Shown here one piece after another: positions 8,741-57,275 of a DNA stretch of 58,362 nt. Under the pieces are notes generated by a model, which did no database searches, was not told where the DNA came from, and saw only the letters and a program-made list of their open reading frames with translations. The stretch comes from a virus (lineage: Duplodnaviria; Caudoviricetes): positions 1 to 58,362 of the IMG/VR virus record IMGVR_UViG_3300037882_000558; one strand, written 5' to 3'. Both the position numbers and the translations under genes were made by a program. Position 1 is the stretch's first letter, and each line of letters begins with the position of its first letter.

Positions 8741-8751
8741 AGGAGTTTCAA

Positions 8752-10131: not shown

Positions 10132-10561
10132 AACTGGTGTAGCTTTTTTACTACCTGCATATTATATCCATGATTCGAAAGTAGCCGACCATCTTTTTCT
10201 AGCTATTTCACGTAGGAACGATCCTGAATTATTTGGTATTCCCGGCGGGAAGGTAGATCCTGGCGAATCTGAGTTAGAGGCAGTCCAACGAGAAACTGAT
10301 GAAGAAGTAGCTTTACTAGGCTCCTCAGATCAGTTTCAGACTATCTATTCAGGACTATGTGTTGATTATTGGGTTACAGGGTACCTATGGGTAGGTACTA
10401 AAATCAATCTAAATCATCTAGCAGCAGAGCCAGGTCTAGAATTAAAGTGGCTCTCTAGAGAAGAGCTTTGCGATCCACTTATCTCTCCATTCTCTGAATA
10501 TAACAAGAAAATCTTTAAAGCATACGATGATTGGTTAAAGCATAATGCCACACTTCACTAG
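10118..10561 (+). CDS. Stand-alone Nudix hydrolase
   Basis: Nudix box PGGKVDPGESELEAVQRETDEEV. Confidence 0.85.
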   Translation: MPQSKTGVAFLLPAYYIHDSKVADHLFLAISRRNDPELFGIPGGKVDPGESELEAVQRETDEEVALLGSSDQFQTIYSGLCVDYWVTGYLWVGTKINLNHLAAEPGLELKWLSREELCDPLISPFSEYNKKIFKAYDDWLKHNATLH

Positions 10562-13480: not shown

Positions 13481-15279
13481 TTAATATTGAAACACTAGAA
13501 TGGTCCTATGCTTTTTCGTATGGGCCTAATAATAAGATTGACTTCTCAGAAAATCCATTACTTCAATTAGTGGGTAAAAATGGTCATGGGAAGACTAGTA
13601 TAGCCTCTATCTTAGAAGAAGGTATATACAATAAGAACTCCAAAGGTATCAAGAAATCAGATATCTTAAACAGATATACAACAGAGAAAGCTTATACCAT
13701 TTCGGTAGGTTTTACTAAAGATACCGATGTCTATAGAATTGAAACTAGACGAGGTTCTACACAGACTGTTAAGTTATTTAAGAATAATCTAGATGTTTCA
13801 GCGCATACTTCTACAGCTACATATAGGCTGATTGAAGAAACTATGGGTATGGATCATAGAACATTCGCTCAGATTATTTATCAATCTTCTGCATCTAGTT
13901 TAGAGTTTTTAACTGCTACTGACTCTAACCGTAAGAAATTTTTAATTGATCTACTTGATCTAAGTATTTATCCGGAGACTTGTGAAGTATTTAAAGCTAC
14001 AGCTAAACAGTTGGAAACTGAAGTTACATCTGTTAATGCTAAAATTGATTCTGCGAATTCGTGGCTAAAGAAAAACGCAACAATAGATTTAACCCCAAAA
14101 CCAGTAGTTAAGGTAAAAGAAGCCCCTAGAAGTTTATACGATCAGATCGGTGAATTGAAAGCTCAGCTAAGTAATATCACTAATTTAAATAAGCGTACTA
14201 TTCAGAACAATGAATATGCCAAGCTTATGCGTAACATTGATGTAGTACCTCCAGGCCCTAAGCCAGTACATCCAATGTTACAAGCTTTAAAGGGCGAGAA
14301 ATTAAGTTTATCTGGCATACAGCAGTCTTCTAAAGCTTTACTTAGTAAGTTAGGTGCCATTGCTTCCTCTACTACATGTCCTACATGTTTACAGGATATA
14401 GATGCTTGCAAACGAGATGCAATTATCCTACAAAGTCAAACTAGTAAAGACGTAACTACATCTCGTATTGCAGAAATAGATAAACTATTTGCAGAAATGC
14501 AACGTGAAGATAGTCAGTGGGCAGCTAGAGTAGCTGTATTAGAAGAATACGAGCGTTACAATGCTTTATTCGATCCTGAAATGTCTTCAGAATTGCTAGA
14601 TCGTGAAGCAATCGTGAATCAAATTTCAGCACTTGAGGCAGAGGTTAAAAAGATTGAATTAGAGATTTCTTTTGCACAAACCGCAAATAGGTCAGCTGAG
14701 GCACATAATGCCAAGATTTCTGTTATTACTGAACAGATTGCTGAATTTAACGAAGAATTAGTTACTTTAAACGCTAGACTTAAAGTATTATTAAAAGAAT
14801 TAAATAATACTCAGGTTCTTGTTAAAGCATTCGGACCTAATGGTATAGTAGCGTATAAGATCGAGTGTTTAGTTAAAGACCTAGAAGAACAGACTAACTT
14901 ATACCTAACTGAGCTATCTGATGGCAGATTTCAGTTGCGTTTTGAAGTATCTACTAGTGATAAATTAAATGTAGTTATTACAGACAATGGTAACGATATT
15001 GATATTTTAGCATTGTCCAGTGGTGAGCGCGCACGAGTAAACGTAGCTACACTACTAGGTATTCGTAAGCTATTACAGTCTCTATCCAATAACAGAATTA
15101 ATTTGTTATTCCTAGATGAAACCATTGAGAATCTAGACGTGGACGGTAAGGAAAAACTAGTAGAAGTTCTACTACAAGAAGAGCATTTAAATACTGTATT
15201 AATCTCTCATTCCTTCACACATCCGCTCATTGAGAAATTGAATATAATTAAAACAAATAACATTTCGAGGATTGAATGA
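13477..15279 (+). CDS. D13: SbcC/Rad50-like ATPase (T5 D13)
   Basis: GKNGHGKT, zinc hook CPTC, signature LSSGE, FLDE, ISH; long coiled coil. Confidence 0.94.
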   Translation: MINIETLEWSYAFSYGPNNKIDFSENPLLQLVGKNGHGKTSIASILEEGIYNKNSKGIKKSDILNRYTTEKAYTISVGFTKDTDVYRIETRRGSTQTVKLFKNNLDVSAHTSTATYRLIEETMGMDHRTFAQIIYQSSASSLEFLTATDSNRKKFLIDLLDLSIYPETCEVFKATAKQLETEVTSVNAKIDSANSWLKKNATIDLTPKPVVKVKEAPRSLYDQIGELKAQLSNITNLNKRTIQNNEYAKLMRNIDVVPPGPKPVHPMLQALKGEKLSLSGIQQSSKALLSKLGAIASSTTCPTCLQDIDACKRDAIILQSQTSKDVTTSRIAEIDKLFAEMQREDSQWAARVAVLEEYERYNALFDPEMSSELLDREAIVNQISALEAEVKKIELEISFAQTANRSAEAHNAKISVITEQIAEFNEELVTLNARLKVLLKELNNTQVLVKAFGPNGIVAYKIECLVKDLEEQTNLYLTELSDGRFQLRFEVSTSDKLNVVITDNGNDIDILALSSGERARVNVATLLGIRKLLQSLSNNRINLLFLDETIENLDVDGKEKLVEVLLQEEHLNTVLISHSFTHPLIEKLNIIKTNNISRIE

Positions 15280-15974
15280 GAAGTATAGAAGCTAGATACG
15301 GCAAGATTTGGTATTACGGCAAAGACGAATACGTAGGTAGAAGCCTTCACAATTATGGTGAATTTAGTGGCGAAGAGTGTGAAATAATTAACTCACTAGC
15401 CACAGGAACATGCTTAGACATTGGTGCCAACATAGGAGTTATGTCTCAGATGTTAACTTACTACGGTAAAGAATGTGTTGCCTTTGAGCCTCAACCGGAA
15501 ATATTTAAGCTATTAGAACTAAACTTTGAAGGTTTAAAATTTAACGTTGCCTTAGGTTCGGAATCCGGTACTGCAAAAATGCCTAGGCTTCGTTATGGTA
15601 CTAAGTGCAATTATGGCGGTATTTCGCTAAATACTCGTAGCGAACTAGGTAGCTACGATGTACCAGTAATGACTCTGGATTCTTTACAAATAGCTAGCGT
15701 TGGTTTTATCAAGATTGACGTAGAAGGTTGGGAACAAGAGGTACTTAAAGGTGCCTCCGAAACTATTTCCCAGTACAAGCCTGTTATGTACATCGAAGAT
15801 GACAGACTCGAAAAACGAGCAAGCTTGCGCCAGTACATAAACTACCTAGGCTACGATATTGAAGTTAGCGAGCCCCCACTATTCCGCCCTAACAACTTCT
15901 TTAATAATCCTAAAAATATTTGGGATAAGAATTACGTAAGTTGTAATTTGATTTGTAGGCCTCGCCATGGTTAA
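15276..15974 (+). CDS. FkbM-family SAM-dependent methyltransferase
   Basis: LDIGANIG, AFEPQPE, FIKIDVEGWE..VLKGA; N-terminal DEYVGRSL.YGEFS. Confidence 0.9.
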   Translation: MRSIEARYGKIWYYGKDEYVGRSLHNYGEFSGEECEIINSLATGTCLDIGANIGVMSQMLTYYGKECVAFEPQPEIFKLLELNFEGLKFNVALGSESGTAKMPRLRYGTKCNYGGISLNTRSELGSYDVPVMTLDSLQIASVGFIKIDVEGWEQEVLKGASETISQYKPVMYIEDDRLEKRASLRQYINYLGYDIEVSEPPLFRPNNFFNNPKNIWDKNYVSCNLICRPRHG

Positions 15975-17829: not shown

Positions 17830-18037
17830 AACTGTCCGAATTGAAAATGCAGACACAGGTACTGCATACCACGTAAGAGTTACGACGCAAGAACGTCTGT
17901 ATAACCATGAAACTCAGGCGCTATCGCCTGAATGGACTGATACAAATACTAGAATTCTAAGTTACCCTACCGAAATGCTTAGTGATTACTTAACTAACTC
18001 TAAGCGTTTCCTTATTGAAGAAGTGAGCAAAGATTAA
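17822..18037 (+). CDS. Hypothetical protein (MTKTVRIENAD...)
   Basis: In-frame ATG 17822; TAATG coupling to the RNR gene. Confidence 0.65.
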   Translation: MTKTVRIENADTGTAYHVRVTTQERLYNHETQALSPEWTDTNTRILSYPTEMLSDYLTNSKRFLIEEVSKD

Positions 18038-39300: not shown

Positions 39301-42300
39301 TTAGCTTGCTCCATTCTAGCGTCTTTAGTAATATCTAAACCGCGTAATTTTGCGGCATTAGCATTATTAGCTAGTTCTACTTGTTTAGATGCTTCTAAGT
39401 TAATTTGCTGTGATTGGCTTAAGGCTTGTGAATCAATATCCAAAGATATTTGCTTTATTTGACTAGGATCTGTAACACCTGCTGTGGCTTGTGTTTTTTG
39501 TACTTCTGTTTGAGCTTTAAGGGCGATAAGCTTAGATTCTGATTCGAATCTTATCGCTGTCAGTTTATTATTTAGTTCTAAAGAAGCGGCTTCTCTATCT
39601 AGATAACCTTGTTGTTCTACTGCTAAAGTCTCAGAAATATTACCTAACTGTTGTTTAGCAGTTAGTCTTGCTGTTTCTATAGATAATAGATTTTGTTGTT
39701 GCTCTTGACTTATTTGAGCATCTAACTTTTCATTAGAAAGTCTTTGCTGAGCAATGGCTTCTTCATTCTTAATTAGGCGTATCTTATCTTCTGCACCAAG
39801 TAAAGCATTTCTTAATCTCAATTGTTCTTGAGCTAAGACATTTTGCTTTTGTTGTACTGAAATACCTTCTTTTAACTTATTAGCAGCCTCAATTTGACCT
39901 TCGGCTATAAGTTGCGATATTCTAGTATTTTTCTGATTTAGATCGAATACTTGTTGTGAAGTTAATTTTTCTACTTCTCTAGCTCTAATAGACGCTCTTG
40001 CTTCTAATTCTCTATTTAAAAGGGACTTATCCGCTATTATAGCTCCTGCTGTAGCTAATTTTAGCCTATCTGCTTCTATTGTTTTTAATTCAATGCCAGA
40101 TTGAATTAACTTCTGAGTATTATCAAAACCTTCTTGGGCAGTACCACGAGCTGCAGTAATATCTGAAGATCTTCTATCCCCAGCTAAACCTGCTTTCTGT
40201 GCTTTAAACCCTAGAGTAGCTTCGAAAAGACCTCTTAAGATTTTTTGTGATTCAGGAGCAAGACTTAGGAAGCCTTCAGAAGTTTCTAATTTACCTGAAC
40301 GGAAGTCGTCTAAAGCTCTAGCTAAGCTAGCACTAATCTTAGGTAGACCAGCTAATTCTTTATTCTCAGCTTCGGTTCTTGAAGATCCTTTTTCTGTTAA
40401 AGTTCTTTCTCTGGACTCTATAGAACTTTGTTCAATAGCAATCGCTGCTTTTTCTTGAACTTCGATTAGTTTAAGGTTAGTATTAATTAAGCGTTCTTGA
40501 ACGTCAATCTCTTGCTTACGTAGAATATTAGTAGCTGCCGCAGTACCAGTTCCACTAGAGCCGGCTAGAACAGTCTTAGATACTTCTACACCTGCCTTGG
40601 CAATAGCGTCGTTAATACCTTGTGCCAAAAGCATTACACCCTTAGTTAAGGTTGCCTCACCCAAGCTTTGGAACTGAGATACTAGTTCTTTGGCTCTTTC
40701 TTCTAGTACACGTTTTTCTGCAGAAGCCCATTCCATAATACGCTTAGAGTCTAGACGTACTTGAGGATTGTAAGGATTTGCATTTAGTGCTTTTTCAGCT
40801 CTTTGACGTGCCTGATCAATTACACCTGTTTGTTCTTTATTCTTATTTAGTTCTGCAGTAATACTTAAAAGACGCTCAGCAGTTGCAGGATCTAATAGTT
40901 TTAGTTTATCAACTTTACCAGCTATGCTGTTTAACTGCACTAGTGCATTCTTTGTACTAGTAAAACTAGAGGTTAAGGTGTTGCCTAAACCTACTAAAGA
41001 AGAACCTAGTTTGCTTAAGGGACTATTAGGAGATAGTGAAGTAGTTAAGTCACCATACGCCTTACTTACAGCAGAGAAAGAATCTTCAACAGATTTTAAC
41101 TCTCTGGCTGCCTTTATACTACCTTCGGCTAACTGTTCCTGTGCCTTTGCAATAGCTTGAATGTTACTAATTATCTTTTCCGGATCGGCACTCTTTGTAA
41201 TAGCTTTAGCTATACCGCCCTGACTTAGGTCTAAAGTACCTAGTATACTTGTTAACTTAGTCTGGAAAGCTGTTCTGGCCTGTTCGTCATCTATTGCACG
41301 AATAGATTCTACAACGCTGGAAGCAATTTCTTTAGAAGCTACATCTGCAATACCCCTACCTACACCAGACTTAAACCCGTCAATAAAACGATCGAATCCA
41401 CTAGAGGCTGCGTCTAATTTAACAAGACTACTGACTAGGTTTTTAGTATTGCTTACTAAATCTTCCATAGCATTTGCTGAAGCAATTACTGATTCTGAAC
41501 TTAGTATTTTACCAACTTCCTTAGCTGCGATAGCATCTAATGTTCTATTAAGGGAGGCAGTACTTTCTTCTAAAGAACTTACTGCAGCAGAGAACTTTGC
41601 AGCTTCTTTAGCATTTTTGCTAAAGGCGAAACTTAGTAGTTCATAAGCAACAACTGCTAAGCCTACGTAAACTAATACATTCTGTAGGCTAGAAGCTAAA
41701 CCGATAAATCCTGTGGTTAAGATACTAGCAGTAGCACTGGCCTTTGCTAGTCCTGCTTGTAATGGTGTAAAGGTACCTGCTTGTTGGGCCTTCTTAATAG
41801 ACTCACCCATTTCAGTATACGCAACACGTAGCCCTAAAGCCTGCGTTGTTTCGATAGCCATACTCTTAATATTACGTTCAGTAGCTTCTCTTTGCGCTTT
41901 ATCACGTAGTTCAATTTGTCTACGTACTGCAGCGTTAGAGTTTAATAGTTCGTTTAGTCTTTGGGTTTCTCTTGCGGCATTATTTGCTTTTGCAGAGTCC
42001 ACTTTAGCTTGCTGTTCTTCGAAAGCCTTTTCAGCTCTTTGTGACTCAATAATAGCATTAGCAATGTTAGCATAGCCTTGAGCTACTTTAGTTTGCTTAC
42101 TACCTAGTTCTTGTAGTTTAGCTATTTGATCTTTTGTTATTTCTTGAGGTGCTACATTCTTAATCTCGTCAAGAATTTTTGCACCACCTTTACCTTTGCG
42201 ACTAGCTAGTAGAGTTTGTAGCTTACCTTCGGCTTTGTCAACTACGTCTACTCTTGCTTGTGCTTGTTCTTCTAAGGCCTTTAACTCATTTGATAGACGG

Positions 42301-43409
42301 GTTCTTATATTTGCCAACTCTATCTTAGCTAACTTCTTTGCACCTTCTTCAGCTCGGGCTACACGTACTTCGGCTACTTTACCTGCTTCTTCAGCAGCTT
42401 TAGCGGCGTTTTCTCTTATAGCGCCAATAGCCGGTAGAGCTTGCTTTAGTAGAGTTACACCAATTAGACCCACGGCTGCGCTTAGAGCAGTAGGACTTTG
42501 TGCAAGTAGTCCAACTAAGGGTCCGAATACTTTGTTAACAGCTTCTAAACCTACTTGAATTATGTCCTTTAAAGAACCAAGTAGCTTAGAGTAAGGGTTA
42601 GCATCGATCTTGATTGAACCGAACTTAGCTTCACCTTCTGAAAGAACAGCATTAGCAAATGCTTGTCTCTTTTCAAAGTCTGTTACACTTGCAGCAGTTT
42701 TACCTACTGATCTAGCATAGTTTCTAGTAGCTTCGTCAACTTTAACTAAGATACCAAGTTCGTCTAGTAATTCTGGTTCTATCTTTGTAATACCACGGGT
42801 TAGACGACTTACTGAATCAGTAAGATCTCTACCTAGTGCTAAAGATGCTTGCTTAGCTACTGTGGTTAGGCGTAAGATTTGGTCTGAAGCAATACCTGCA
42901 CTACTAGCTTGGGCTACTACTTGCATAGACTCTGCTAGTGATAGTGCGTTATCTGATAGTTGTTGGACCTGCTTTGAAAGTGAAGTTAAGTTTTTACCTG
43001 ATTGAGCACCAATTTGCTCAAGACCTTTAAGCATGTTGGTAGTATCAGAGGCTTTTGATAGCGCTGTAAATGCAGCACTTACAGCGAATACGTTAGCTGC
43101 AAATGTAGCGTATAATCTTACTAAACCGCCTAAACCTTGGGCCTGCTGCGCGAAGTCGCGAGCAGCCGCACCTGTTCCACCTGCGGAGCGTTGCTTACCG
43201 TAGTCAATGTTTTCCTGAGTTGTAGTAGCTCTAGACTTTCCTGCTGCTAAAAGTGCTTGGCCGCCCCCTTGGGCCGCCTTACCTGCACCAGTAGCTGCGA
43301 TAGCTACTCTATTTAGAGCAGCGGCTGCTTTGTCTGCATCTGTGGTAACCTGCTTTAAGGTACTGCCATCATCTACATTAACAATATGGTTCGTAATTGA
43401 ACTTGCCAT
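36342..43409 (-). CDS. Tape measure protein (2355 aa)
   Basis: Long Ala/Leu-rich helical ORF; T5 pb2-like N-terminus (GLVRLYATFAANVFA, KIEPELLDELGI); follows the tail chaperones. Confidence 0.92.
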   Translation of the reverse strand: MASSITNHIVNVDDGSTLKQVTTDADKAAAALNRVAIAATGAGKAAQGGGQALLAAGKSRATTTQENIDYGKQRSAGGTGAAARDFAQQAQGLGGLVRLYATFAANVFAVSAAFTALSKASDTTNMLKGLEQIGAQSGKNLTSLSKQVQQLSDNALSLAESMQVVAQASSAGIASDQILRLTTVAKQASLALGRDLTDSVSRLTRGITKIEPELLDELGILVKVDEATRNYARSVGKTAASVTDFEKRQAFANAVLSEGEAKFGSIKIDANPYSKLLGSLKDIIQVGLEAVNKVFGPLVGLLAQSPTALSAAVGLIGVTLLKQALPAIGAIRENAAKAAEEAGKVAEVRVARAEEGAKKLAKIELANIRTRLSNELKALEEQAQARVDVVDKAEGKLQTLLASRKGKGGAKILDEIKNVAPQEITKDQIAKLQELGSKQTKVAQGYANIANAIIESQRAEKAFEEQQAKVDSAKANNAARETQRLNELLNSNAAVRRQIELRDKAQREATERNIKSMAIETTQALGLRVAYTEMGESIKKAQQAGTFTPLQAGLAKASATASILTTGFIGLASSLQNVLVYVGLAVVAYELLSFAFSKNAKEAAKFSAAVSSLEESTASLNRTLDAIAAKEVGKILSSESVIASANAMEDLVSNTKNLVSSLVKLDAASSGFDRFIDGFKSGVGRGIADVASKEIASSVVESIRAIDDEQARTAFQTKLTSILGTLDLSQGGIAKAITKSADPEKIISNIQAIAKAQEQLAEGSIKAARELKSVEDSFSAVSKAYGDLTTSLSPNSPLSKLGSSLVGLGNTLTSSFTSTKNALVQLNSIAGKVDKLKLLDPATAERLLSITAELNKNKEQTGVIDQARQRAEKALNANPYNPQVRLDSKRIMEWASAEKRVLEERAKELVSQFQSLGEATLTKGVMLLAQGINDAIAKAGVEVSKTVLAGSSGTGTAAATNILRKQEIDVQERLINTNLKLIEVQEKAAIAIEQSSIESRERTLTEKGSSRTEAENKELAGLPKISASLARALDDFRSGKLETSEGFLSLAPESQKILRGLFEATLGFKAQKAGLAGDRRSSDITAARGTAQEGFDNTQKLIQSGIELKTIEADRLKLATAGAIIADKSLLNRELEARASIRAREVEKLTSQQVFDLNQKNTRISQLIAEGQIEAANKLKEGISVQQKQNVLAQEQLRLRNALLGAEDKIRLIKNEEAIAQQRLSNEKLDAQISQEQQQNLLSIETARLTAKQQLGNISETLAVEQQGYLDREAASLELNNKLTAIRFESESKLIALKAQTEVQKTQATAGVTDPSQIKQISLDIDSQALSQSQQINLEASKQVELANNANAAKLRGLDITKDARMEQAKYNDQMEKLVELTDTLSGVFGTVGKNFGTAMQSILKATKDNASKRAKIEEEFNKKRVDALKKGGSAADFEKEQTRLTQQENDKKLESDLDYYGSTAGAAASMFSEKTAAYKAFHAIEQALHLASLAMKVEALIADAVGTKSSVINSGIRATADGIAAVVKTIASLPFPANIAAGAAVAALVGGLISQIGGGNTKSISLAGMTSKDRQEVQGTGYSFVNGKKVENGGGVLGDASAKSASIDNSLKLIKDNIIDGLGYDKSILETLQSIDQGINKAAISLYSISGIRSGSISGLKEDFSSTKTTSGLAASINSILNPLDKFFGGLTGSLLGSIFGSKKVSTEILDSGIKLSGTFKDLMDGITNSVQAYETLKVTTTSKALFGLVKKTSEAIVTNYAGLDSKITGQITDIFANAGAAFIQIGSKIGLSVDQVLGTLSNVKVDQLASLRGLTGEDLEKEFDAIISNILDGASTALFSSLKEYQKFGEGLFETVVRVVDSNDKVKVALDSIGISLTSLSFEASESLLTLTGGLSSFTDQVKFFREEFLTEAERLAPVQKNVTDTLAALGAEFGDMSIPLIDSRDEFKAFIKGLDLTIPKQQELYASLIQLAPAFAEVYASTSKALSLEERREESLRLYIQILELEGRTVEAIALSRQIELDAMDELLRPMQKYIYALQDEADAKDKLKTAYENESAALKTTISNVGSFITSLKDFKGSLLTGATSILSPQDKYNEVKKALQETARIASSVANTDEQKAAKDKALGDLPNASSAFLEASRIIFASSDKYSADFNLVNSILDGVTGALTNDKTTAELQLAALDSSVSFLNLINTNTETTAQLLQQYLQLAAVAAGAKVGLPSDVSLPVGALAGPNVPGYVEPPRAQAAFVPDGYMGTYSSAVEGGPEITNFKDIDRAISANSSGSAFDNFTNSIVSELVNLRKEVAQLRAEQNIQTGDLIATSIENSDKMTEAVTTSSKDTTIWKERSNFKLV

Positions 43410-44414: not shown

Positions 44415-45860
44415 TTAAGTCGCTGAGATATTTGTAAAGTAACGAATCTGTAGATCGTTAGCCTTAGTCAAGTCGAATGATTGGCTACCCTGTGTATCAG
44501 GTGTGAAGCCTTGCGCGTTGAAGTTAATTGTGGTAGCAACAACGTCAGCGATATTAACTTGAGGAACTTGTAGGGAAGCTCCAGGCATTTCGAACTCAAC
44601 GCGTACTGCGTTTGATCCGCCACCTAATTCAAGCTGTACACGGAACTTAGGTTCAACAGAGTTAGCGTTAATAATATCTGATAGTAGTTTACCGGTATTG
44701 TTACCTTCCGAAGCGCCAGTACGTAGATAAGCAGTTACGTTACCTGAAACAGCTCTATTACCTGGGAAGTAACCAATCGCTTGATTAATAACACCTAGGT
44801 TACTAGGTACAAGGTAAGTTACGTTATTAGCGATGGTTAGGTTACCACCAGTAATAGCGATTGTGTAAGTTGTTGCAGAAGTAAAGTCTGAACCACCAAT
44901 GTTACTTTGTAGTGACATTGTTGATAGCTTATTAGTAATATAAGGTGCATTAGCAATGCTAGGAGCTGCTGTAGTAGAACTTAGTAGTGCGGTTGCAAGA
45001 GCAGGACCGTTAGTAGTTAGTTCTTTAAGCTTAGTACCCTTACCAGTCCATGCTACAGTAGCAATAGCATCTAGACCGAAGTCGATTGATGCTTGGTCTA
45101 AGAAGCAATTGTCTACTGCATAAACTACGCTGTCAACAACGAATAGTAGACCGAACTTTTGGAATGCGTTTCTGTTAGAACCCATGGTGCTAACATAGCT
45201 AAATTGTCCGCTTGCGGTTCCTACAGGACCTGGAGCCCATTGACCTGTGTAGGCCTTTGAGGTACCAACAGTAGCGGTTGTTCCAGCTGCTGCAGCTGGG
45301 GCACGTGCATATTCTACAGTATAAGTACTACCTGAAGGAATAGCTGTAATTTTAACTGCGTTGTTGAAGGTACTCTGACCTGCTGCAGTAATACCTGCAA
45401 TACTGAAAGTATCACCAACACCTAGAGTGTAAGTACCGTTAACTAGTGCACTAGGAGATACAATAGTTGCTACTGAAGTAGCTGTAGTACTACGAACGAT
45501 AGAAGTAGGTGTAACACCTGCATCAATTGCGTAAGCACCTAGTAGTGCATTGAATAGGACCTTTTCTTGCGGAGCTACTAGACTGCTTACACCGTTAGGA
45601 CGAATATAAGTAGAGAAAGTAAAGTCTACAGGATCTAGCTGTGTATTGAAAGAACGTTGACCTCGAACGGGGATGTTACCACCTTCCGAAATCGTAATTG
45701 TTTGTTGTTGAGTACCTTGACTGAATGAATATCCGTCAAGTACCGCGATTTCCCAAGTATTTGTATTTGTGAAACCTGTTAACGAATCGGAAATAGCACC
45801 AGTGCTATCAACGTTTGTGGTGAAATATACCTTAGTATTTCTACTTAGATTAATAGCCAT
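44415..45860 (-). CDS. Major tail tube protein (T5 pb6-like)
   Basis: LSRNTKVY, VLDGYSFSQ, FSTYIRP, DFGLDAIATVAW, NLTIANNVTYL and GNRAVSGNVTAYL motifs. Confidence 0.9.
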   Translation of the reverse strand: MAINLSRNTKVYFTTNVDSTGAISDSLTGFTNTNTWEIAVLDGYSFSQGTQQQTITISEGGNIPVRGQRSFNTQLDPVDFTFSTYIRPNGVSSLVAPQEKVLFNALLGAYAIDAGVTPTSIVRSTTATSVATIVSPSALVNGTYTLGVGDTFSIAGITAAGQSTFNNAVKITAIPSGSTYTVEYARAPAAAAGTTATVGTSKAYTGQWAPGPVGTASGQFSYVSTMGSNRNAFQKFGLLFVVDSVVYAVDNCFLDQASIDFGLDAIATVAWTGKGTKLKELTTNGPALATALLSSTTAAPSIANAPYITNKLSTMSLQSNIGGSDFTSATTYTIAITGGNLTIANNVTYLVPSNLGVINQAIGYFPGNRAVSGNVTAYLRTGASEGNNTGKLLSDIINANSVEPKFRVQLELGGGSNAVRVEFEMPGASLQVPQVNIADVVATTINFNAQGFTPDTQGSQSFDLTKANDLQIRYFTNISAT

Positions 45861-48325: not shown

Positions 48326-50254
48326 TTAACTCCAACGGAAGGTTGATACGCCTTGACCAAGGTTAGTGGTAACCTGGGTTAGACCAGTACGTAGCGAAGC
48401 TACTAGTACCTTGCGTTGTGTTTCAACCATGTCTTGAGTATCGAAACGTAGACCACGTTGGTTACCTGCTAGGAAGTTACCAGGAGCTACAGCGATAGCA
48501 CCAATGTTAGTAGATGCAGTATTTGCACCACCGGCCTTAGTTGGGAACTCAGCTGATACGATTACAGGTGAATTACCGATGCTACCTACTTGACCAGTTA
48601 GTAGGGTCGCTGAGGTACCAACCTTATCCATTGTCTGGAATAGGGTATCGTCTAATAGATCGTAATAGATTTCAGTAGAAACGATATAGGTTAGTTCAGC
48701 AGGATCAAGACCCCAAGCACCTAGGTCCTTACGTAGTGAACGTAAGTTAGCAACAGAAGCAGCACCAGTGTTGGTAGCTACAACGGCTGAAGTGGTGTCA
48801 TATAGCGCAAGACCCTTAACAGGATCAGCACCAGAACCAGCACCTAATAGGTATGCTTTGTCCATTGAACGTGCTACACGGCGAACCATAGCATCACGAA
48901 CGATAGGTAGTAGAACGATTAGTGAGTCTTCTTCTTCTTCAAAGTTCATGTACTCTAGGGTAGCTAGTTTGTAAGCATTTAGAGTAATTTCCTTCAATTG
49001 GTGAGTTTGTGCTGCACCAGGAGAAGCGGTAGTACCGAACTGAGCGTTAGTAACCCAAGTAGCTAGACCAGCTTCAGGGTTTACTGGAATTGTCATTACG
49101 TTGGTCTGCATAGCGATGTTGCGTAATAGAGGCGCAACAACTAAACGACGACGTACTTCAGCTTCCATATTTAGCGAAACTTGTAGTTCCCAAGTTGCTG
49201 ATGCAACGTGAGGACCAACCTTTTCTACTAGACTACGTCCGAACTTGGTGTCAGTAACAGCCTTGCCGGTAATCTTTGATAGTAGAACAGCCTTTTCGAT
49301 TTCGGCGTAGGTTAGTTCGCCGTTCTTGTTGTCGCTGAATTGCATCTTACTCTTTTGAATAGTAGCAATTTCAGCAGCTTTTTCAGCTAGTTGTGCTTGT
49401 AGGCCTTCGAGCATGCTCTTGGCACCAGCAGTTTGTTCTTCGATACGCTTGGTAGCTTCAGCTAATAGCTTTTCGGCTCCGGTATCTAGAGTTTCAATAC
49501 GTGCTGCAACAGCTTTTTCGACCTTAGTATTAAAGTCTTTTTCTGCCTGAGCAACAGCAGCAGCTTCAGCGGTAGCCTTAGCTTGAGCAGCCATAATAGC
49601 TTCTGCAGTCTTGCGAGCGGTTTCAGCTAGCATTTTTTCGATTTCTTCTGGATTCATATTCCATTCCTTGGGTGAGTTGCCTTTTTTCACTACTGCTGAA
49701 GATTCTAGCCCTTTAGCTGCTTCGTCATTAGTTGTAAATTGGGTCTTAAATTGCTTATAATCATCAGCACTTTCAAATGCTTTTGATAAACTAAAAAGAG
49801 TATTTTGATTACAAGGAACTGATACTACTGAGATTTCTACTAGTTCTAGTTCTTTAATAACAAACAACTCTGTTGCTGAATTGTACTCAGCATCAATGAT
49901 TCGGAATCCGATGCTAAATGCTGTAATAATTCCATCTTTGATAAGATTGAACACTTCTGCTGCTGCAGAAATTCTTGCTTTTATCCAAAGACCTCTGCTA
50001 TCTACCTTGCTCTCGACCATTCGTCCAATAGGATGATCGTAGTCGTGCTGAGATAGGATAATAGGGTTCTTTAAATAATTTACCATGCCTGCTTCCCAAA
50101 CTCCGGGAGGTACAACATCACCGGCTCTATCTACATCGTTAGTACTTGCGTAACCTTCAATGAAAATATTCTCGATCTTGCCGTCTGCAGTAGGTAAATC
50201 TTCTTTGGTAATAAAAGCACTATTTAAATGTAGTACTTTTGTTTTAGCTACCAT
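48326..50254 (-). CDS. Prohead protease fused in frame to an HK97-fold major capsid protein
   Basis: IEGYAST, DRAGD, PIILSQH, AFSIGF, EISVVSVPCN (protease), then a coiled-coil delta domain and T5 pb8-like capsid (IPVNPEAG, EEEEDSLI); no stop between them. Confidence 0.9.
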   Translation of the reverse strand: MVAKTKVLHLNSAFITKEDLPTADGKIENIFIEGYASTNDVDRAGDVVPPGVWEAGMVNYLKNPIILSQHDYDHPIGRMVESKVDSRGLWIKARISAAAEVFNLIKDGIITAFSIGFRIIDAEYNSATELFVIKELELVEISVVSVPCNQNTLFSLSKAFESADDYKQFKTQFTTNDEAAKGLESSAVVKKGNSPKEWNMNPEEIEKMLAETARKTAEAIMAAQAKATAEAAAVAQAEKDFNTKVEKAVAARIETLDTGAEKLLAEATKRIEEQTAGAKSMLEGLQAQLAEKAAEIATIQKSKMQFSDNKNGELTYAEIEKAVLLSKITGKAVTDTKFGRSLVEKVGPHVASATWELQVSLNMEAEVRRRLVVAPLLRNIAMQTNVMTIPVNPEAGLATWVTNAQFGTTASPGAAQTHQLKEITLNAYKLATLEYMNFEEEEDSLIVLLPIVRDAMVRRVARSMDKAYLLGAGSGADPVKGLALYDTTSAVVATNTGAASVANLRSLRKDLGAWGLDPAELTYIVSTEIYYDLLDDTLFQTMDKVGTSATLLTGQVGSIGNSPVIVSAEFPTKAGGANTASTNIGAIAVAPGNFLAGNQRGLRFDTQDMVETQRKVLVASLRTGLTQVTTNLGQGVSTFRWS

Positions 50255-51463: not shown

Positions 51464-51898
51464 TTAATAGAATTTAGCAAAACTAGATAAGGATGTTACC
51501 TGTTTGGCAGGTTCTTCACCAGATTCAATTTTAGCTTTTTGTAGGTCAATCCATCTCTGCTGTTTAGGTACAGAACTAGGGGTGGGTGCTTTACCGTAAA
51601 TACCGTGTAGCTTTACGTGATGCCTATTACATAGTGTATAAACAAGATCGTAAATCTCCGTGTGATGCTCCGCGATAAAATCATCTCTAACTGCTAAAAT
51701 ACCTTCGTCTGTAGAAATATCAAATTGATTTCTATCAGCCCAGTTATTTAAAAGCAAAGTAATGGAGTGAAGGTGATGTAGTTCCAGATCTTGGTCTGAA
51801 CCACAGATAAAACAATGGGACTGTTTTTCATAGGCTTTTTTAGCCTTATCTCTAACCCACTTAACTGGTATGCGATTATTATTGGTATTCTTTGCCAT
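51464..51898 (-). CDS. HNH endonuclease (T5 nicking-enzyme-like)
   Basis: KWVRDKAK, CFICG, LELHH, TLCNRHHVKLH; between terminase and portal as in T5. Confidence 0.82.
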   Translation of the reverse strand: MAKNTNNNRIPVKWVRDKAKKAYEKQSHCFICGSDQDLELHHLHSITLLLNNWADRNQFDISTDEGILAVRDDFIAEHHTEIYDLVYTLCNRHHVKLHGIYGKAPTPSSVPKQQRWIDLQKAKIESGEEPAKQVTSLSSFAKFY

Positions 51899-51925: not shown

Positions 51926-51954
51926 ATTATAGCACTCACCCCACCAGTTGTCAA
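51926..51954 (-). promoter_or_regulatory. Late promoter for the head genes
   Basis: TTGACA-N17-TATAAT with TG extension and A-tract. Confidence 0.85.
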
Positions 51955-51976: not shown

Positions 51977-52014
51977 AAAAGAAAACCTCCTAAGCGGCAA
52001 AGCTTAGGAGGTTT
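51977..52014 (-). terminator. Terminator after the terminase block
   Basis: AAACCTCCTAAGC / GCTTAGGAGGTTT stem followed by a T-rich tail on the minus strand. Confidence 0.75.
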
Positions 52015-52369
52015 GTAGTGCTAAGGTAATATCTATTAAAGAGCAGTGCCTATATTCGAGTATCTTTTCTATCTGAGCAGGGCTGAGCCTAGATAGCTCG
52101 TTAAAAGGCGTGGTAGTATTTAAACAAATGTCCTTAGGGTAATTGTGTATCGAAGCAGTTTCTAGAGTATTTAAGAAATCCTTATGACACTCTAGGAGTA
52201 CAAATGTTTCGGGATCACCGAATTTATTCCACTCATTTTGCAAACACTTGGCAGCTCTATAAAACCTGAAGTCTTTAAAGTGTTGAGCCCAGCGTGCTTC
52301 GATATCTACACTTTGACCTATATAAACTTTACCCGAATAGAACTTTAGAAGATAAATTCCACAGGTCAT
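52004..52369 (-). CDS. Free-standing GIY-YIG endonuclease
   Basis: CGIYLL...VYIGQS.DIEARWAQH...LETASI...LN. Confidence 0.85.
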   Translation of the reverse strand: MTCGIYLLKFYSGKVYIGQSVDIEARWAQHFKDFRFYRAAKCLQNEWNKFGDPETFVLLECHKDFLNTLETASIHNYPKDICLNTTTPFNELSRLSPAQIEKILEYRHCSLIDITLALQTS

Positions 52370-53664
52370 ATAGTGTAGCTATATAGGGCATAACGAATTG
52401 CGTCACCGATGTCAGAGAAGTCATGTTTTGGTTTTTCTTTAGTTAAGGTTTCACGGGTATCCCAAGCATACTGGTCAAACATGGTGAGTACATGTTTGCA
52501 GTGCGGGGCAACTTTCAAACGACCCTGTTCTACTAGGGTCTGTACATAAGCAATACCTGGTAATACATCTTTTTTAGCTTTAATTGTAGCGATATCGTAG
52601 GTATAGGCTAAGTCAGCACCAAACTGAGCCGCGGCCGAGTCGATGAATAATGCGTCAACTTTATACTTATGTAACATTTCAGCAATGCGATCAGCATGTT
52701 TAGCTGTTACAGTATTGGATTCCAAGTACTCATCTACGATATGGAAAGTATCATCATAGTCATCATAAGCAATTACAGCAAAGGCTGTAGGGTCTTTATA
52801 TCCGGGGTCTAGCCCAGCTATAAATTCTATTCGGCCCTTAGGTTCAAATTCGCAAATGCTAGACTGTGGAAGCTGATAGATCTGCCCTTCGAACACTGTA
52901 AACGAAGCCATGTATTCTTGTTCAAAGTGGTTGCGTGACATAGTCTTACGAGCTTCGTTGACGTCTTTTTCCGACATACGCTCGTTTTCAGTATAGTCAG
53001 CATGTAGAGATACCCATTCAGGGTATTCGTCACTAAAACCACGTTGGTAGTATTCACTAAACCAGTTATTTTTACCGCGAGGTGTAGAAATAAAGATGGC
53101 CTTTGAGTTAGGACGGTCTAGAGTAGGGCGTAGCGCAACTTCAAACGCCTCTCGGGCATCTGCCCCAAGCGCAGCTTCGTCGAAGATAATCAAGTCATAC
53201 GAACGTCCAACGCAACTATCTACAGTTCCAATAGAACCCATACGAATGGTCGAACCATTCTCTAGTTCAATTACACGATCTTTAAGATTGTCTTTTGCTA
53301 CTTCTAGGTCAAAAGTACGGATTAACTTACGTTGTAATTCAAACGAGATAGACGATAACGAAAAGTTAGGCGACATGATTAAAACATTACAGCCAGGCAT
53401 TAAGTCAACTAATTGACCAATAATGTTAGCAATGAATGTTTTACCAAGACGCCTACTTAACGCAGCTACAACAAATCGAAAAAGAGGGTTGTTAACTGCG
53501 TTAATTAGCGCAATTTGGGGTCGGTTGATTTCTTCCCATGCGTTCTTACCATTAAAGTTTAATAGCTTAAGATAAGGAACAATCGGAAGTTTTATGAATC
53601 GTTCAGTAACAGGAAACTCAGTTACAAAATCTCTATCAATGCCTTCACGTGATATGGTCAACAT
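52366..53664 (-). CDS. Terminase large subunit
   Basis: SRRLGKT, IIFDEAA, ISTPRG, FEQEY, GLDPG and DAIRYA motifs. Confidence 0.95.
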   Translation of the reverse strand: MLTISREGIDRDFVTEFPVTERFIKLPIVPYLKLLNFNGKNAWEEINRPQIALINAVNNPLFRFVVAALSRRLGKTFIANIIGQLVDLMPGCNVLIMSPNFSLSSISFELQRKLIRTFDLEVAKDNLKDRVIELENGSTIRMGSIGTVDSCVGRSYDLIIFDEAALGADAREAFEVALRPTLDRPNSKAIFISTPRGKNNWFSEYYQRGFSDEYPEWVSLHADYTENERMSEKDVNEARKTMSRNHFEQEYMASFTVFEGQIYQLPQSSICEFEPKGRIEFIAGLDPGYKDPTAFAVIAYDDYDDTFHIVDEYLESNTVTAKHADRIAEMLHKYKVDALFIDSAAAQFGADLAYTYDIATIKAKKDVLPGIAYVQTLVEQGRLKVAPHCKHVLTMFDQYAWDTRETLTKEKPKHDFSDIGDAIRYALYSYTI

Positions 53665-54964
53665 GTATTACACTCTCCTGTACTTCCGTTAGCGTAGCCC
53701 AAGGAGCTAGAGGTTTAACTAACACTATCTTTTCCTGCGTTAGTAATTCTTTGTAAACTGCAATCATGGGTGCTTCTAGGACTCGCTGACGATATAATTC
53801 AACCACGTGATCCATGGTTTTCTCCCATGAACCTAAATTGCGGATAATTCTTACCGAAGGATACCACGGAGTGGTAGATCCACTATTACCCCAACGGAAG
53901 TCGGTTTCTAGCAAAGGCTGAATCATCCAGCATTCTACACCTAGAGAACCACAAAGGTGAACAATGGAGGTATCCACAGTTATTACTAAATCTAGCTGCG
54001 AAACCAAGCGAATGGTTTGATCCCAATCTGTAATTTTGTGATTTCTAATATAACTAGGATGAGTATTATTAAGAGACAGGTTATGCAAAGTAGCAAGATT
54101 AGAGAGGCCCCTAAAATAGCCAGCAGACATAGAACGATTTGCATTATTAGCATGAGTGGCAGAACCAGCCCATACAATACCAACGCCTTCAAGAGGAACA
54201 TGTTTAGGCTTTCTTAAATGGGCTAACCAAGTAGCTGGCGCACTACTAATACCAAATATCTGTGCTAGTGAGCAAATTGGCACACCGTATCCACTAGGCA
54301 CACGCACACATTCCCAACGACTAAAAAATATATCTAACGAAGGGTCGCACATTACTGTGACTTTATCGCAAAAGGCTTCAAGCAAGTGTATATAGCGACC
54401 AAACATTAACTTATCACCAATGCCTTGTTCTGCTAGTACGCAAATTTCGTGGACATGACTAACACCATCCCAGCGCAGTGTATACTTTAAGTCAATGGGA
54501 TTACTATTACGGCGAAAACGATATTCGTAGTCAGCCCATGCACTAGGCCAATCAATCTCACCACGGTCGAACCCCATGCGCAAAGTTGCATTACCTCGAT
54601 TCCATACGGCATCATAGTGTAGTGGATCAGCCTGTAAACATTGATTATAATGTTGAATAGCCAGAGCATCGCGACCATAACGATAGTGCATTAAGCCAAT
54701 GTTATTTTCAGCTAGACTATAAGACTCTACACGACGACCGTTTAAAAATGGTAAATCGGGACTATTAGCTTTGACATAACATTCAATAGCCTTACGATCA
54801 TCACCAGCTAGGCGATAAGCATTACCCATGTTTAAGTACAATTCCTTAAACAGCATAGTACCGCTATGCTGAAATGCACTTTCGCACTTCTTAAAATAAA
54901 CTAGAGCTTTTTGGCCTTTATTGGCTTCTAGTAATCTGGTTGCTCTGTTATAGTGTTCTAGCAT
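53645..54964 (-). CDS. TPR-repeat glycosyltransferase (GT-B, GT9-like C-terminus)
   Basis: TPR repeats (LYLNMGNAY, AENNIGLMHY, AVWNRG); EQGIGD..MFGRY, GIVWAGS, LDLVITVDTSIVHLCGSLG and PWYPSVR motifs. Confidence 0.85.
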   Translation of the reverse strand: MLEHYNRATRLLEANKGQKALVYFKKCESAFQHSGTMLFKELYLNMGNAYRLAGDDRKAIECYVKANSPDLPFLNGRRVESYSLAENNIGLMHYRYGRDALAIQHYNQCLQADPLHYDAVWNRGNATLRMGFDRGEIDWPSAWADYEYRFRRNSNPIDLKYTLRWDGVSHVHEICVLAEQGIGDKLMFGRYIHLLEAFCDKVTVMCDPSLDIFFSRWECVRVPSGYGVPICSLAQIFGISSAPATWLAHLRKPKHVPLEGVGIVWAGSATHANNANRSMSAGYFRGLSNLATLHNLSLNNTHPSYIRNHKITDWDQTIRLVSQLDLVITVDTSIVHLCGSLGVECWMIQPLLETDFRWGNSGSTTPWYPSVRIIRNLGSWEKTMDHVVELYRQRVLEAPMIAVYKELLTQEKIVLVKPLAPWATLTEVQESVIHVDHIT

Positions 54965-55442
54965 CGGGGTTTAGTAATCTTTCTACAAGGGAGGCGTAGT
55001 TGCTACCATCGCCATTTATTTGAATATTGTTTTGGGTCTTGATTTCGCGCTTATCAGTTTCTTTTTCCAGTGCTAGTTTCTTAATTTCTAGCTCTAGCAA
55101 TTCTTTGGTAAACTTGTGCGATAGGGTAAGGATTTCTAAGATATCTTTGTTTGACCCAATATCTGCTTCGTCCATTTCCTGGAACTTCTTTTCAATAATA
55201 GCGTCTAAAGCCTGTCGCATCTTAAACCGGTTATTGAATCCGGCATTAAAGAATACGTTGTCTACATAGGCTCGGACCTCGCGGCGGTTCAAGATTTTAG
55301 TAACTATATCTGGGGTAGTATCTAATTCTTGGGCTACCTTGGCAATATCTGGAGTTAGCAAATAGCAGTTGGCTATTTCTAAGGCTTCTGGGCTGATCTC
55401 GATGGCTTCAGCAGGATGAGCAGTGGGTAAGTTTTCAGACAT
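54948..55442 (-). CDS. Terminase small subunit (T5-like)
   Basis: ISPEALEIANCYL, EVRAYVDNVF..GFNNR, SNKDILEIL and NYASLVERL motifs. Confidence 0.85.
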   Translation of the reverse strand: MSENLPTAHPAEAIEISPEALEIANCYLLTPDIAKVAQELDTTPDIVTKILNRREVRAYVDNVFFNAGFNNRFKMRQALDAIIEKKFQEMDEADIGSNKDILEILTLSHKFTKELLELEIKKLALEKETDKREIKTQNNIQINGDGSNYASLVERLLNPDARTL

Positions 55443-55464
55443 AAGATTCCTGTAATTTGTTCAA

Positions 55465-55493
55465 ATTATAGCACGAGGGGACGTGAGGGGCAA
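55465..55493 (-). promoter_or_regulatory. Late promoter for the terminase operon
   Basis: TTGCCC-N17-TATAAT with TG extension and upstream AAAATTT. Confidence 0.75.
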
Positions 55494-55560
55494 GGGGGAA
55501 ATTTTGGACGCTTGGGAAGTTTTTGATAACTAATGGAAACTGTGTAAACTGCTATGTAGA

Positions 55561-55647
55561 ATGGCACCTAAAGTTGTGTGTTAATTGCTATGGCACCTAA
55601 AGTTGTGTGTTAATTGCTATGTGCAATGGCACCTAAAGTTGTGTGTT
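55561..55647. repeat. Tandem direct repeat, 29-bp unit, two full copies plus one partial
   Basis: ATGGCACCTAAAGTTGTGTGTTAATTGCT at 55561 and 55590; a 22-bp partial copy at 55626. Confidence 0.95.
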
Positions 55648-55903
55648 GAAATACCTGTAATTAGGCCGTGAAGATGGGTTGGCCTCCGGGGGTTGTAACC
55701 AAGTCTCGGAACCGGCCCTATTGTCTCATACCTGGCCGGCGGCGTCAACCTGGGATAAACCCTAAGATGCAAAAATAATACACTACTGTATAAAACATCA
55801 GTAGCTCTAAAACGCACTAGAACGGCCTCTAAGGCGTTTAAACCTTTTTGGCCACTACCTCCTAGGAGACATGTTATCTGCCAAGCCTGCGGCCGTTAAC
55901 ACA

Positions 55904-55967
55904 TTATCCACACCCCATTTCATAGGAGAATTTGGGGTTGCAAACAAGTTATCAAGCCTGTGGATAA
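55904..55967. promoter_or_regulatory. Inverted pair of consensus DnaA boxes
   Basis: TTATCCACA at 55904-55912 and TGTGGATAA at 55959-55967. Confidence 0.75.
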
Positions 55968-56298
55968 CACACATCTTGTTACAATATAGGGTAAGTACCA
56001 GGAACAGGGTAAACCCCTATGGTTTGGGAAATTTGGCATGGTAGGCAATACCCCTGCTTGCTGTAAGGCTTTTATCTAACATATTGGGCAAGTATAGGCA
56101 AGTAGGGACATACCCTATACTAATGAAACCTGGCACACCATAAGCTTTGGCTATACTATCAACACCTGGCAGACCATAGGCCTGGGCTATCGGCGTGCTA
56201 TACCATCAGCGGCTTAGGGTCAAGTAGGGATAAACACCTATACCGCCTGGCGCTGGTCGCGGTATGCTGTTTACTCAACTTCTGGAATTGGACTCTAT

Positions 56299-56385
56299 AT
56301 GTTGCTCCGCTCCTCCCTCCTAGTTACCCGCGCCATGCTGGAAGCCCTCGCCGAAAAGCGCGCATTCTCTAAGGTGACAGCATGA
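56299..56385 (+). CDS. 28-aa pre-early-type ORF
   Basis: First ORF after the putative promoter; ATGA coupling to the next ORF. Confidence 0.4.
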   Translation: MLLRSSLLVTRAMLEALAEKRAFSKVTA

Positions 56386-56540
56386 GACAAGAACGCAAAG
56401 CAGAGTATTTCCCGCAGTACCATCAAACAACCCACATAGGCGAACATTTCGCAACCCCTGCAAAGCCTCGCCGGCAAAAGCAGAAACAAAAGCGCGGTTT
56501 TTCCTTTCGCAACCTTTTCAAAACTGGGGCCATCAAATGA
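56382..56540 (+). CDS. 52-aa basic ORF
   Basis: MRQERKAEYF...; AAGGTG upstream; ATGA overlaps at both ends. Confidence 0.5.
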   Translation: MRQERKAEYFPQYHQTTHIGEHFATPAKPRRQKQKQKRGFSFRNLFKTGAIK

Positions 56541-56656
56541 ATTTCATTCTTTGGATTCTGGCATTCGCTGCACTCTGCTGGATTGGTAGCGTAGTTTGGG
56601 GCGAGATTCTGGACGGTCTGGAAGAACTCGCGCAATATATGCGCAATAGACGCTAA
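56537..56656 (+). CDS. 39-aa membrane peptide
   Basis: MNFILWILAFAALCWIGSVVWG...; coupled to its neighbours. Confidence 0.5.
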   Translation: MNFILWILAFAALCWIGSVVWGEILDGLEELAQYMRNRR

Positions 56657-56657
56657 A

Positions 56658-56889
56658 ATGGAAACGCTGGCGGTTATACTGTTAGCGTTTTCACCTATGC
56701 TAATCATCGGTTATTTAAATGACCCGCTATTTATTTCTAGCCGGTGCGTGGTTATGCGCTACTGGCTTTGTTGTGTTTGGGTTGCTTGCATTCTGTGTCG
56801 GCACAATCCCGGACATACTCAAGCGCGACCGATTCGCGTATGGGTTTCTTTGCGCTAACATTGTGGGACTAATCCGGCTTTGCATTTAA
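56658..56889 (+). CDS. Hydrophobic small ORF(s): 56658..56858 and/or 56719..56889
   Basis: Two overlapping hydrophobic frames; the second ends right at the terminator; cannot tell which is real. Confidence 0.35.
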
Positions 56890-56920
56890 AAATCGGCGCA
56901 AGCCGATTTTTTGTTGTTTT
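56888..56920 (+). terminator. Rho-independent terminator
   Basis: AAAAATCGGC-GCAA-GCCGATTTTTT (GNRA loop). Confidence 0.85.
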
Positions 56921-57059
56921 TGCGCAACATGCGCCAAAATGAGGCGCACTCCGCCGAACTAATTATAACATGGAAACCCTGGGCCTAGACTAGGTGTTTT
57001 CACCTATAACGCCTGGCGCGTTGTGTGATATGCTTGCGATTCACGGACTAGGGGCATAA

Positions 57060-57275
57060 ATGCAAACCCTTGAATATGTAAAATCGTGCGTGCAATTCGC
57101 GCGGCAAGCGCGACGCGATGCACGGCGAGCTAAAGCCGCGCGCTGCTGGTTGCAAGCGTTCGAGCTTAACAAAAAATGCGCAAGCTGGTTAAACGAAGCA
57201 CGCGAAGTTAAGCAATACGGTATTCACGGCAAGCCGGAAAACGTATATAATCCGGCCGATTCTCTCAACTTTTAA
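57060..57275 (+). CDS. Hypothetical basic protein
   Basis: 71-aa ORF with AGGGG upstream, following the second putative pre-early promoter. Confidence 0.6.
   Translation: MQTLEYVKSCVQFARQARRDARRAKAARCWLQAFELNKKCASWLNEAREVKQYGIHGKPENVYNPADSLNF

Follow-up and report, generated by a model that had tools for sequence, protein, structure and literature searches.

In an uncultivated phage genome, IMG/VR virus record IMGVR_UViG_3300037882_000558 (Duplodnaviria; Caudoviricetes), a 58,362-bp viral contig that we refer to in full as the window and whose completeness is estimated at 55%, we found that the terminase genes terS and terL are separated by a gene (53645..54964, minus strand) whose product of 439 amino acids (aa) joins tetratricopeptide repeats (TPRs) to a GT9-like glycosyltransferase (GT) domain. 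Tentatively, and at a little under an even chance, we propose that this TPR-GT enzyme and an FkbM-family methyltransferase carry out late glycosylation, with methylation, of a virion protein, the tail tube being the likeliest target. The gene product would be a soluble, cytoplasmic, two-module protein glycosyltransferase synthesized late from a terS-GT-terL message, in which the short TPR superhelix would pick the protein acceptor by docking a structural protein at a segment that is extended or lies on the surface, and the GT9-like GT-B domain would move a host-made nucleotide sugar, with ADP-heptose as the family default, onto Ser or Thr. FkbM, where present, would most likely O-methylate the transferred sugar; the target would be a virion protein made concurrently, with a Ser/Thr-enriched insert of the tube protein as the best candidate, and the finished tail would bear a (methylated) glycan coat. 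The window carries T5-like genes for replication (DnaB-like helicase, primase, family A polymerase, SbcCD-like proteins and flap endonuclease) and for structure (pb6-like tube, T5 p143-like protein and portal). Between its terL and those of cultured phages the identity reaches 48.8% at most, 113-118-kb Vibrio Demerecviridae being the closest, and the source phage is an uncultivated member of an aquatic T5-like clade.

The open reading frame (ORF), the Pfam TPR matches and an AlphaFold2 model all bear out what a preliminary description of this DNA had read between terS and terL, namely a complete gene for a TPR and GT-B protein. About 3.5 TPRs and a complete GT-B domain lie on one polypeptide, made up of an N-terminal TPR domain of 8 helices (residues ~1-155, 54500..54964, minus strand), the GT-B catalytic domain (residues ~165-395, 53780..54472, minus strand) and a poorly conserved C-terminal extension (residues 396-439, 53648..53779, minus strand) that contains the terL overlap, at which most homologues' alignments stop (~387-398) and whose last residues have a predicted local distance difference test score (pLDDT) as low as 63. 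The model, built on an alignment of 44 homologues, has a pLDDT of 92.7 and a predicted template modelling score of 0.90, and shows the TPR helices (1-151) and, after them, a pair of Rossmann-like halves at 171-260 and 261-395. In Pfam, TPR_1 and TPR_2 score above their cut-offs, while the GT9 family PF01075 matches residues 313-342 only, at 13.4 bits (E 0.05) against a gathering cut-off of 22; it is found at E<=0.01 in 14/44 family members, at best at 1.3e-5. The protein matched 0 families in PHROGs and gave only weak TPR matches in NCBIfam, and profile searches of the PDB returned only TPR proteins or a marginal match to WaaC.

It is the structural comparison that points to GT9. GT9 enzymes fill the top four ranks for the catalytic domain, with WaaC, WaaF and TibC among the best, and the domain superposes on GT9 enzymes at 3.1 Å, versus a root-mean-square deviation of 11-19 Å for OGT/SPY. 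OGT and SPINDLY (GT41), which share the order of TPRs followed by GT-B, are the best Foldseek matches of the whole model (E ~1e-7), but the catalytic domain here is not of the GT41 kind, and Pfam gave 0 matches to GT41 at E<=0.1. On the model the catalytic domain is GT9-like, and an OGT-like one is not supported. Across the 44 sequences (40-84% identity) we found four invariant groups, E179 Q180 G181 G183 D184, H271 N273 R277 S278, D331 T332 H336 G339 and D355 F356 R357 W358. The third holds a D-T-S-x-V-H motif that aligns to the D-T-G-x-x-H sugar-nucleotide motif of WaaC (profile alignment E 0.13) and places the D-T/S-G/S-x-x-H signature of GT9 in the C-terminal Rossmann half, and the first forms an EQGxGD motif that follows strand 171-177 and whose D184 may be the counterpart of the catalytic Asp of WaaC. 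Each TPR has an Asn at the equivalent position (N45, N88 and N122), invariant in the same alignment, a series that presumably resembles the peptide-binding asparagine ladder of OGT. Model and motifs together suggest an architecture like that of OGT or FlmG with a heptosyltransferase-like catalytic domain. Genes of a heptose pathway were found neither in the window nor, in the complete GT+ genome G001, among those specific to genomes with the GT gene (GT+).

The GT gene overlaps both terminase genes, as had also been described: its start is overlapped by the last 17 nucleotides (nt) of terS (54948..55442, minus strand, 164 aa, phrog_3802 E 6e-30), and its end by the first 20 nt of terL (52366..53664, minus strand, 432 aa, Terminase_6N/6C). 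Because of these overlaps, and because terS lies immediately 5' of the GT gene in 43/43 T5-clade loci with enough sequence, we suggest late co-expression with the terminase. Expression from a terminase promoter, as had been claimed, gains part of its support from a promoter-like site (TTGCCC-17-TATAAT with TG, 10/12 consensus matches; 55465..55493, minus strand) ~23 nt 5' of the terS start, and from the lack of any terminator-like site on the minus strand from terS to the end of a GIY-YIG homing-endonuclease-like gene (52004..52369, minus strand; Pfam GIY-YIG E 6e-6, PHROG homing endonuclease), the last gene of the putative unit, directly 3' of which stands a terminator-like hairpin with a 13-bp stem and a T tract (51983..52014, minus strand). 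Consensus matches of this kind are weak, and since 13 promoter-like sites were found in the region versus 12.5 expected from shuffles, the site ahead of terS is weak on its own; a single terS-GT-terL-GIY message would nonetheless be plausible. Immediately upstream of the promoter-like site we noted three direct repeats of ~42 nt (55541-55647) with 69-100% identity and spacings of 29 and 36 nt; they could be a regulatory or terminase-recognition element. The ~1.6 kb at ~55450-57060 is without an ORF of >=100 aa, has a GC content of 0.475 vs ~0.38, and holds scattered direct and inverted repeats, with 0 tRNA and 0 Rfam matches; scans of the whole window for Rfam families and tRNAs likewise found no matches.

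Two samples of loci show how the gene is distributed. The first comprises 80 IMG/VR loci recovered using the GT, several of which are near-duplicates of one another, so that its counts overstate independence; the second comprises the best 80 of at least 596 terL matches, obtained with an alignment as query (a single terL protein as query yielded 0 loci), and 70 of these contain both terS and terL. The GT lies directly upstream of a T5-like terL (at least 50% identity) in 57/80 GT-selected loci, the others being 21 from other viruses and 2 below the tblastn threshold, and tandem GT paralogues occur in two loci (L036 and L048). Among the 70 terL-selected loci the GT is present in 14, terS abuts terL (gap <=142 nt) in 38, and 18 hold other cargo. 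A GT domain was absent anywhere in five GT-less contigs (one 96% complete) and in five further GT-less contigs, and in the Vibrio phage 234P1 terS and terL touch, which makes the GT gene an insertion relative to cultured relatives. It is therefore an accessory cassette, carried by 14/70 loci, and neither a core gene nor a fixed feature of the lineage.

The other cargo, 30 ORFs across the 18 loci (which include L181, L183, L196, L230, L166, L174 and L192), consists of GT2 glycosyltransferases in 3 loci, a weakly matching GT47/RXYLT1-like protein in 1, class II aldolase/epimerase-like proteins in 4, metallophosphoesterases in 3, small GDSL-like proteins below the Pfam cut-off in 3, an Fe-S protein in 1 and GIY-YIG endonucleases in 2, with no family assigned in 6. 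This variety, GT2 and GT47-like enzymes included, identifies the terS|terL junction as an insertion hotspot, and as the hotspot is rich in sugar-active enzymes the conserved GT position needs no mechanistic tie to packaging. An HNH-like gene (51464-51898) is placed between terL/GIY-YIG and the portal gene, with a perfect sigma-70 consensus (TTGACA-17-TATAAT with TG) ahead of it at 51926-51954; homing-endonuclease-like genes flank the terminase and may explain the plasticity of the junction.

Two alternative roles are drawn mainly from the position of the gene. Its product might mainly help terminase or capsid assembly, acting through its TPRs as a scaffold or chaperone, with a regulatory or vestigial GT domain, or might glycosylate a phage protein outside the virion. 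TPR proteins are common as scaffolds and the position between terS and terL is constant, but most close relatives, which package DNA normally, lack the cassette (terS abuts terL in 38/70 loci), the putative catalytic and nucleotide-sugar motifs are invariant despite sequence identities as low as 40%, and the GT domain is found in bacteria without terminase neighbours; we regard this role as very unlikely. The same position, between both packaging genes in 57/57 T5-clade loci, could instead fit a modification of DNA, with the GT-B domain glycosylating and FkbM methylating a modified base during packaging as a defence against restriction. Phage DNA glucosyltransferases are GT-B enzymes, and the FkbM gene of the window lies among DNA repair genes. 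Against this stand the binding of TPR modules to proteins or peptides, the lack of any hydroxymethylase or thymidylate-synthase-like gene in the window or among the GT+-specific genes of G001, the protein substrates that accompany cellular relatives, and the hotspot itself, whose unrelated cargo accounts for the junction position, and we consider it highly improbable.

The functional tie to FkbM that had been suspected from the window is upheld by the relatives. In the window the FkbM-family methyltransferase gene (15276..15974, plus strand, PF05050 E 2.9e-19), the likely partner enzyme, has been relocated to the replication/repair module, where it sits between SbcC-like and PDDEXK genes, 38 kb from the GT gene. 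Its homologues (46-59% identity to that of the window) occur between GT and terL in 26/57 loci, and this adjacency is scattered on the terL tree, where at least 6 changes are forced by supported branches (this and all other trees here come from quick searches). FkbM was absent from 5/5 GT-less contigs, one of them 96% complete; in G001, where the junction holds no FkbM, it is located elsewhere, and it was not found in four incomplete GT+ genomes (61-86% complete) whose junctions also lack it. In an unrelated phage (L070) a single ORF of 620 aa fuses an FkbM domain (32% identity to the window, E 2e-28) to the last TPR and the GT domain (26%, E 5e-19, both motifs retained), in a Halarcobacter genome FkbM lies directly 5' of the TPR-GT homologue, and in two further unrelated phages (L052 and L055) a different S-adenosylmethionine-dependent methyltransferase (Methyltransf_23) directly follows the GT beside the capsid gene. 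In relatives, therefore, GT and methyltransferase genes stand together within or beside structural genes, and adjacency, fusion and independent pairs indicate that the pairing is recurrent and has arisen independently; it is dispensable as well. Two SGNH esterases had been linked to the same system; we found one weak match, which is not common to the relatives, and no second esterase. The link to SGNH esterases is not supported.

Clues to the acceptor come from other genomes. The family is large: of 3971 candidates from a word-indexed search, 1045 were homologues at E<=1e-3, 0 of these with an informative name, and a profile of the GT domain alone matched 39,513 cluster representatives at E<=1e-3 (31,317 at E<=1e-10), some of which are 1000-3140 aa long and contain the domain 2-6 times in tandem. 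Among 50,697 cultured-phage records there were only 2 weak protein matches and no DNA match, and in BFVD there are similar phage proteins that are uncharacterised, of which some bear the name GT9 or Aah/TibC-like. Bacterial homologues are at most 32% identical, longer and richer in TPRs. We sampled 13 bacterial loci and scanned 70 ORFs, and found the homologue directly ahead of flagellin and FliD in Noviherbaspirillum (L158), adjoining FliS/FlaG in Desulfobacter (L155), after an autotransporter and a TPR-sulfotransferase in Xanthobacter (L096 and L131), ahead of a C39-ABC/HlyD exporter of type I secretion (L114), after a PseB-like dehydratase in one locus, and as three tandem TPR-GT9 paralogues in Burkholderia (L126); neighbours in the remaining loci were uninformative. 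Separately, we observed giant bacterial proteins, up to 3140 aa long, in which the GT domain occurs 5-6 times in tandem; they are apparently uncharacterised, as are the tandem TPR-GT9 paralogues and the strings of autotransporter, TPR-sulfotransferase and TPR-GT9 genes.

Among the closest working analogues is FlmG of Caulobacter and Brevundimonas, which has the same modular logic and in which the TPR part binds the flagellin acceptor and the GT-B domain sets the donor (PMC7591256; bioRxiv 10.1101/2022.03.25.485807). Similar to this class the phage protein is soluble and cytoplasmic, with N-terminal TPRs and a C-terminal GT-B domain, and bacterial relatives of the phage protein stand beside flagellin, FliD, FliS or FlaG genes in 2/13 loci. 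FlmG differs in being larger (596 aa, of which ~313 aa form the TPR part, whereas the phage protein has 439 aa and a TPR part of ~155 aa), in using pseudaminic or legionaminic acid as donor, in modifying flagellin and in being encoded on a chromosome. Strong matches to the GT domain, all unnamed, are found in 10/31 Caulobacteraceae genomes, four of these regions are without flagellin by tblastn, and the comparison with FlmG is one of architecture. The bacterial autotransporter heptosyltransferases (BAHTs) TibC and AAH show the same fold acting on proteins, but without TPRs; they form iron-containing dodecamers, as far as the title of PDB entry 4rap and a reference in PMC7591256 indicate. Because of the flagellin, autotransporter and exporter neighbours in bacteria, the TibC fold match and the logic of FlmG, we infer that the acceptor is probably a protein. 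Such a substrate had been suggested before, and the proposal is strengthened by these neighbours, by the structural-module contexts in phages and by the tube insert described below; the likeness to O-GlcNAc transferase on which it had partly leaned was not borne out in the catalytic domain.

The same bacterial neighbourhoods could also be read in favour of a target in the host. The enzyme might glycosylate a surface or secreted host protein (flagellin, pilin or autotransporter) or the inner core of lipopolysaccharide (LPS) at the cytoplasmic face, and so block superinfection or keep progeny from sticking to debris, ends that T5 achieves by other means. Here one can point to the GT9 fold, which is that of the LPS heptosyltransferases, to the flagellin and autotransporter links of bacterial relatives, to the patchy accessory carriage that is shared with many host-interaction genes, and to the other junction cargo (GT2, GT47-like, aldolase/epimerase-like and esterase-like), which could act on envelope glycans. 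However, coupling to the terminase genes implies late synthesis, with little time for envelope remodelling. Moreover, the N-terminal half of the phage GT-B domain is small and preceded by TPRs, unlike lipid-A-binding WaaC: WaaC and WaaF have no TPR, a much larger N-terminal half and lipid A-Kdo as acceptor. Head and packaging modules are where the gene is found in other phages, and it co-distributes with a feature of a virion protein, the tube insert. We therefore hold a host-directed role to be unlikely.

A virion target is suggested by three observations taken together: the structural-module neighbours in unrelated phages, the co-distribution with the tube insert, and the fact that no other gene in the window tracks the GT. 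In phages unrelated to the T5-like clade the gene follows the protease-major capsid protein (MCP) gene (L052), lies near MCP and a GT1 enzyme (L055), between the terminase and a P22-like portal (L067 and L072), or near an adaptor-like gene (L073). When the window was compared with four GT+ and three GT-less (GT-) large contigs, only the GT tracked the split (4/4 vs 0/3), and the T5 pb6-like tail tube protein (481 aa in the window, 44415..45860, minus strand) was 480-492 aa long in GT+ versus 379-392 aa in GT- contigs. The difference is a Ser/Thr-enriched beta-barrel insertion domain of ~100 aa (residues ~110-207, 45240..45533, minus strand), our candidate glycan acceptor. In a set of 47 genomes, the part of the protein that corresponds to window residues 100-230 measures 113-146 aa in 28/28 GT+ genomes and 34-44 aa in 16/19 GT- genomes, the exceptions being G073 with 132 aa, which is window-like, G075 with 69 aa and G076 with 213 aa; the insert is thus present in 28/28 GT+ versus 3/19 GT- genomes. 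No GT+-specific insertion of at least 4 residues was found in the protease-MCP, portal, head completion, terminator or terS proteins, and on this ground, for the protease-MCP, we rejected the capsid as acceptor. A dedicated co-occurring acceptor or sugar-pathway gene was also looked for, and none was found in the window or among the ORFs of G001.

The case for the tube insert has its limits. The association of GT and insert is mostly a clade pattern, with about 2 well-supported independent transitions. The terL tree needs 4 GT changes, only 1 of which is forced by supported branches, and a single GT- clade is not rejected (approximately unbiased test, p 0.42); the tube-core tree needs 2 GT changes, both supported, and an independent-contrast test of GT against insert yielded 1 starred pair, or 4 on the best tree, which are too few supported transitions. 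In the second lineage G073 has the insert without the GT and its sisters have neither, and GT- tube proteins bear different extra domains elsewhere in the chain. An adhesion domain that binds glycans would be an equally good reading of the insert. A complex prediction of the GT with tube residues 100-232 scored 0.02 vs a mark of 0.32 with controls not run, and is no evidence either way. As an observation on the tube proteins themselves, those of the GT-less relatives G076, G079, G086 and G087 (L309-L312) are longer by 100 to 180 aa between window residues 230 and 300, or by 130 to 165 aa between residues 300 and 400, and insertions at such differing sites indicate that the decoration domains of the tube are highly variable in the clade.

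Going beyond late virion glycosylation as such, one may imagine that 'virion glyco-typing' cassettes are exchanged for one another at the terS|terL junction of the clade, and that TPR-GT9 and FkbM are a portable pair that would recognise, by way of the TPRs, a dedicated barrel domain in the tube and cover the whole tail in methylated sugar, with joint gain and loss of enzyme and acceptor domain; this fuller picture we think rather unlikely.

Other features of the window are recorded here in their own right. Prohead protease (S78) and MCP form a single fused ORF of 642 aa (48326-50254), a fusion kept at 638-660 aa in 7/7 compared relatives and similar to one in the unrelated L052 and L055. A module for nicotinamide adenine dinucleotide (NAD) salvage in the order NUDIX, nicotinamide phosphoribosyltransferase (NAMPT), NUDIX (7546-10561) has a counterpart in 0/7 related large contigs. 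The ribonucleotide reductase-like ORF at 18037-19938 is 79% identical to the version in G012 and only ~25% to those of other relatives, which suggests, as a comparison of sequences, a module exchange. An ORF of 2355 aa at the tape-measure position (36342-43409) has 36-61% identity in relatives and is unusually long for a siphophage.

The cassette has an ordinary fold, and for a phage its architecture is unusual. In the literature on T5-like/Demerecviridae phages and on FlmG we found no paper describing a TPR-GT9 cassette. Phage-encoded virion glycosylation has so far been documented for actinobacteriophages, where it altered immune recognition; in mycobacteriophages, cassettes of GT and O-methyltransferase genes modify capsid and tail tube, according to PMC11600133 and PMC12619734, which cite Freeman et al. 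2023. Those cassettes, as presented there, share with ours phage-encoded GT and methyltransferase genes but serve phages of Actinobacteria, comprise three tandem GTs of other families and place glycans at subunit C-termini, whereas here a single TPR-GT9 enzyme lies at terS|terL and the candidate acceptor is an internal domain. Our proposal, if true, would carry the phenomenon over to phages with Gram-negative hosts; on the fuller picture of exchangeable cassettes, no virion glycosylation system would have been described before for such phages, nor any whose enzyme is TPR-guided. A compact soluble enzyme that combines an acceptor-binding TPR part and a donor-specific GT-B domain, together with a small acceptor domain, would then also be attractive for glyco-engineering. 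Recognition of the terS|terL junction as a hotspot of sugar-active cargo helps the annotation of viromes. Among uncultivated aquatic phages, whether T5-like, P22-like or of other kinds, the TPR-GT9-like enzyme with its methyltransferase partner is widespread, and the role proposed here would, if true, give a very large uncharacterised GT subfamily its first function.

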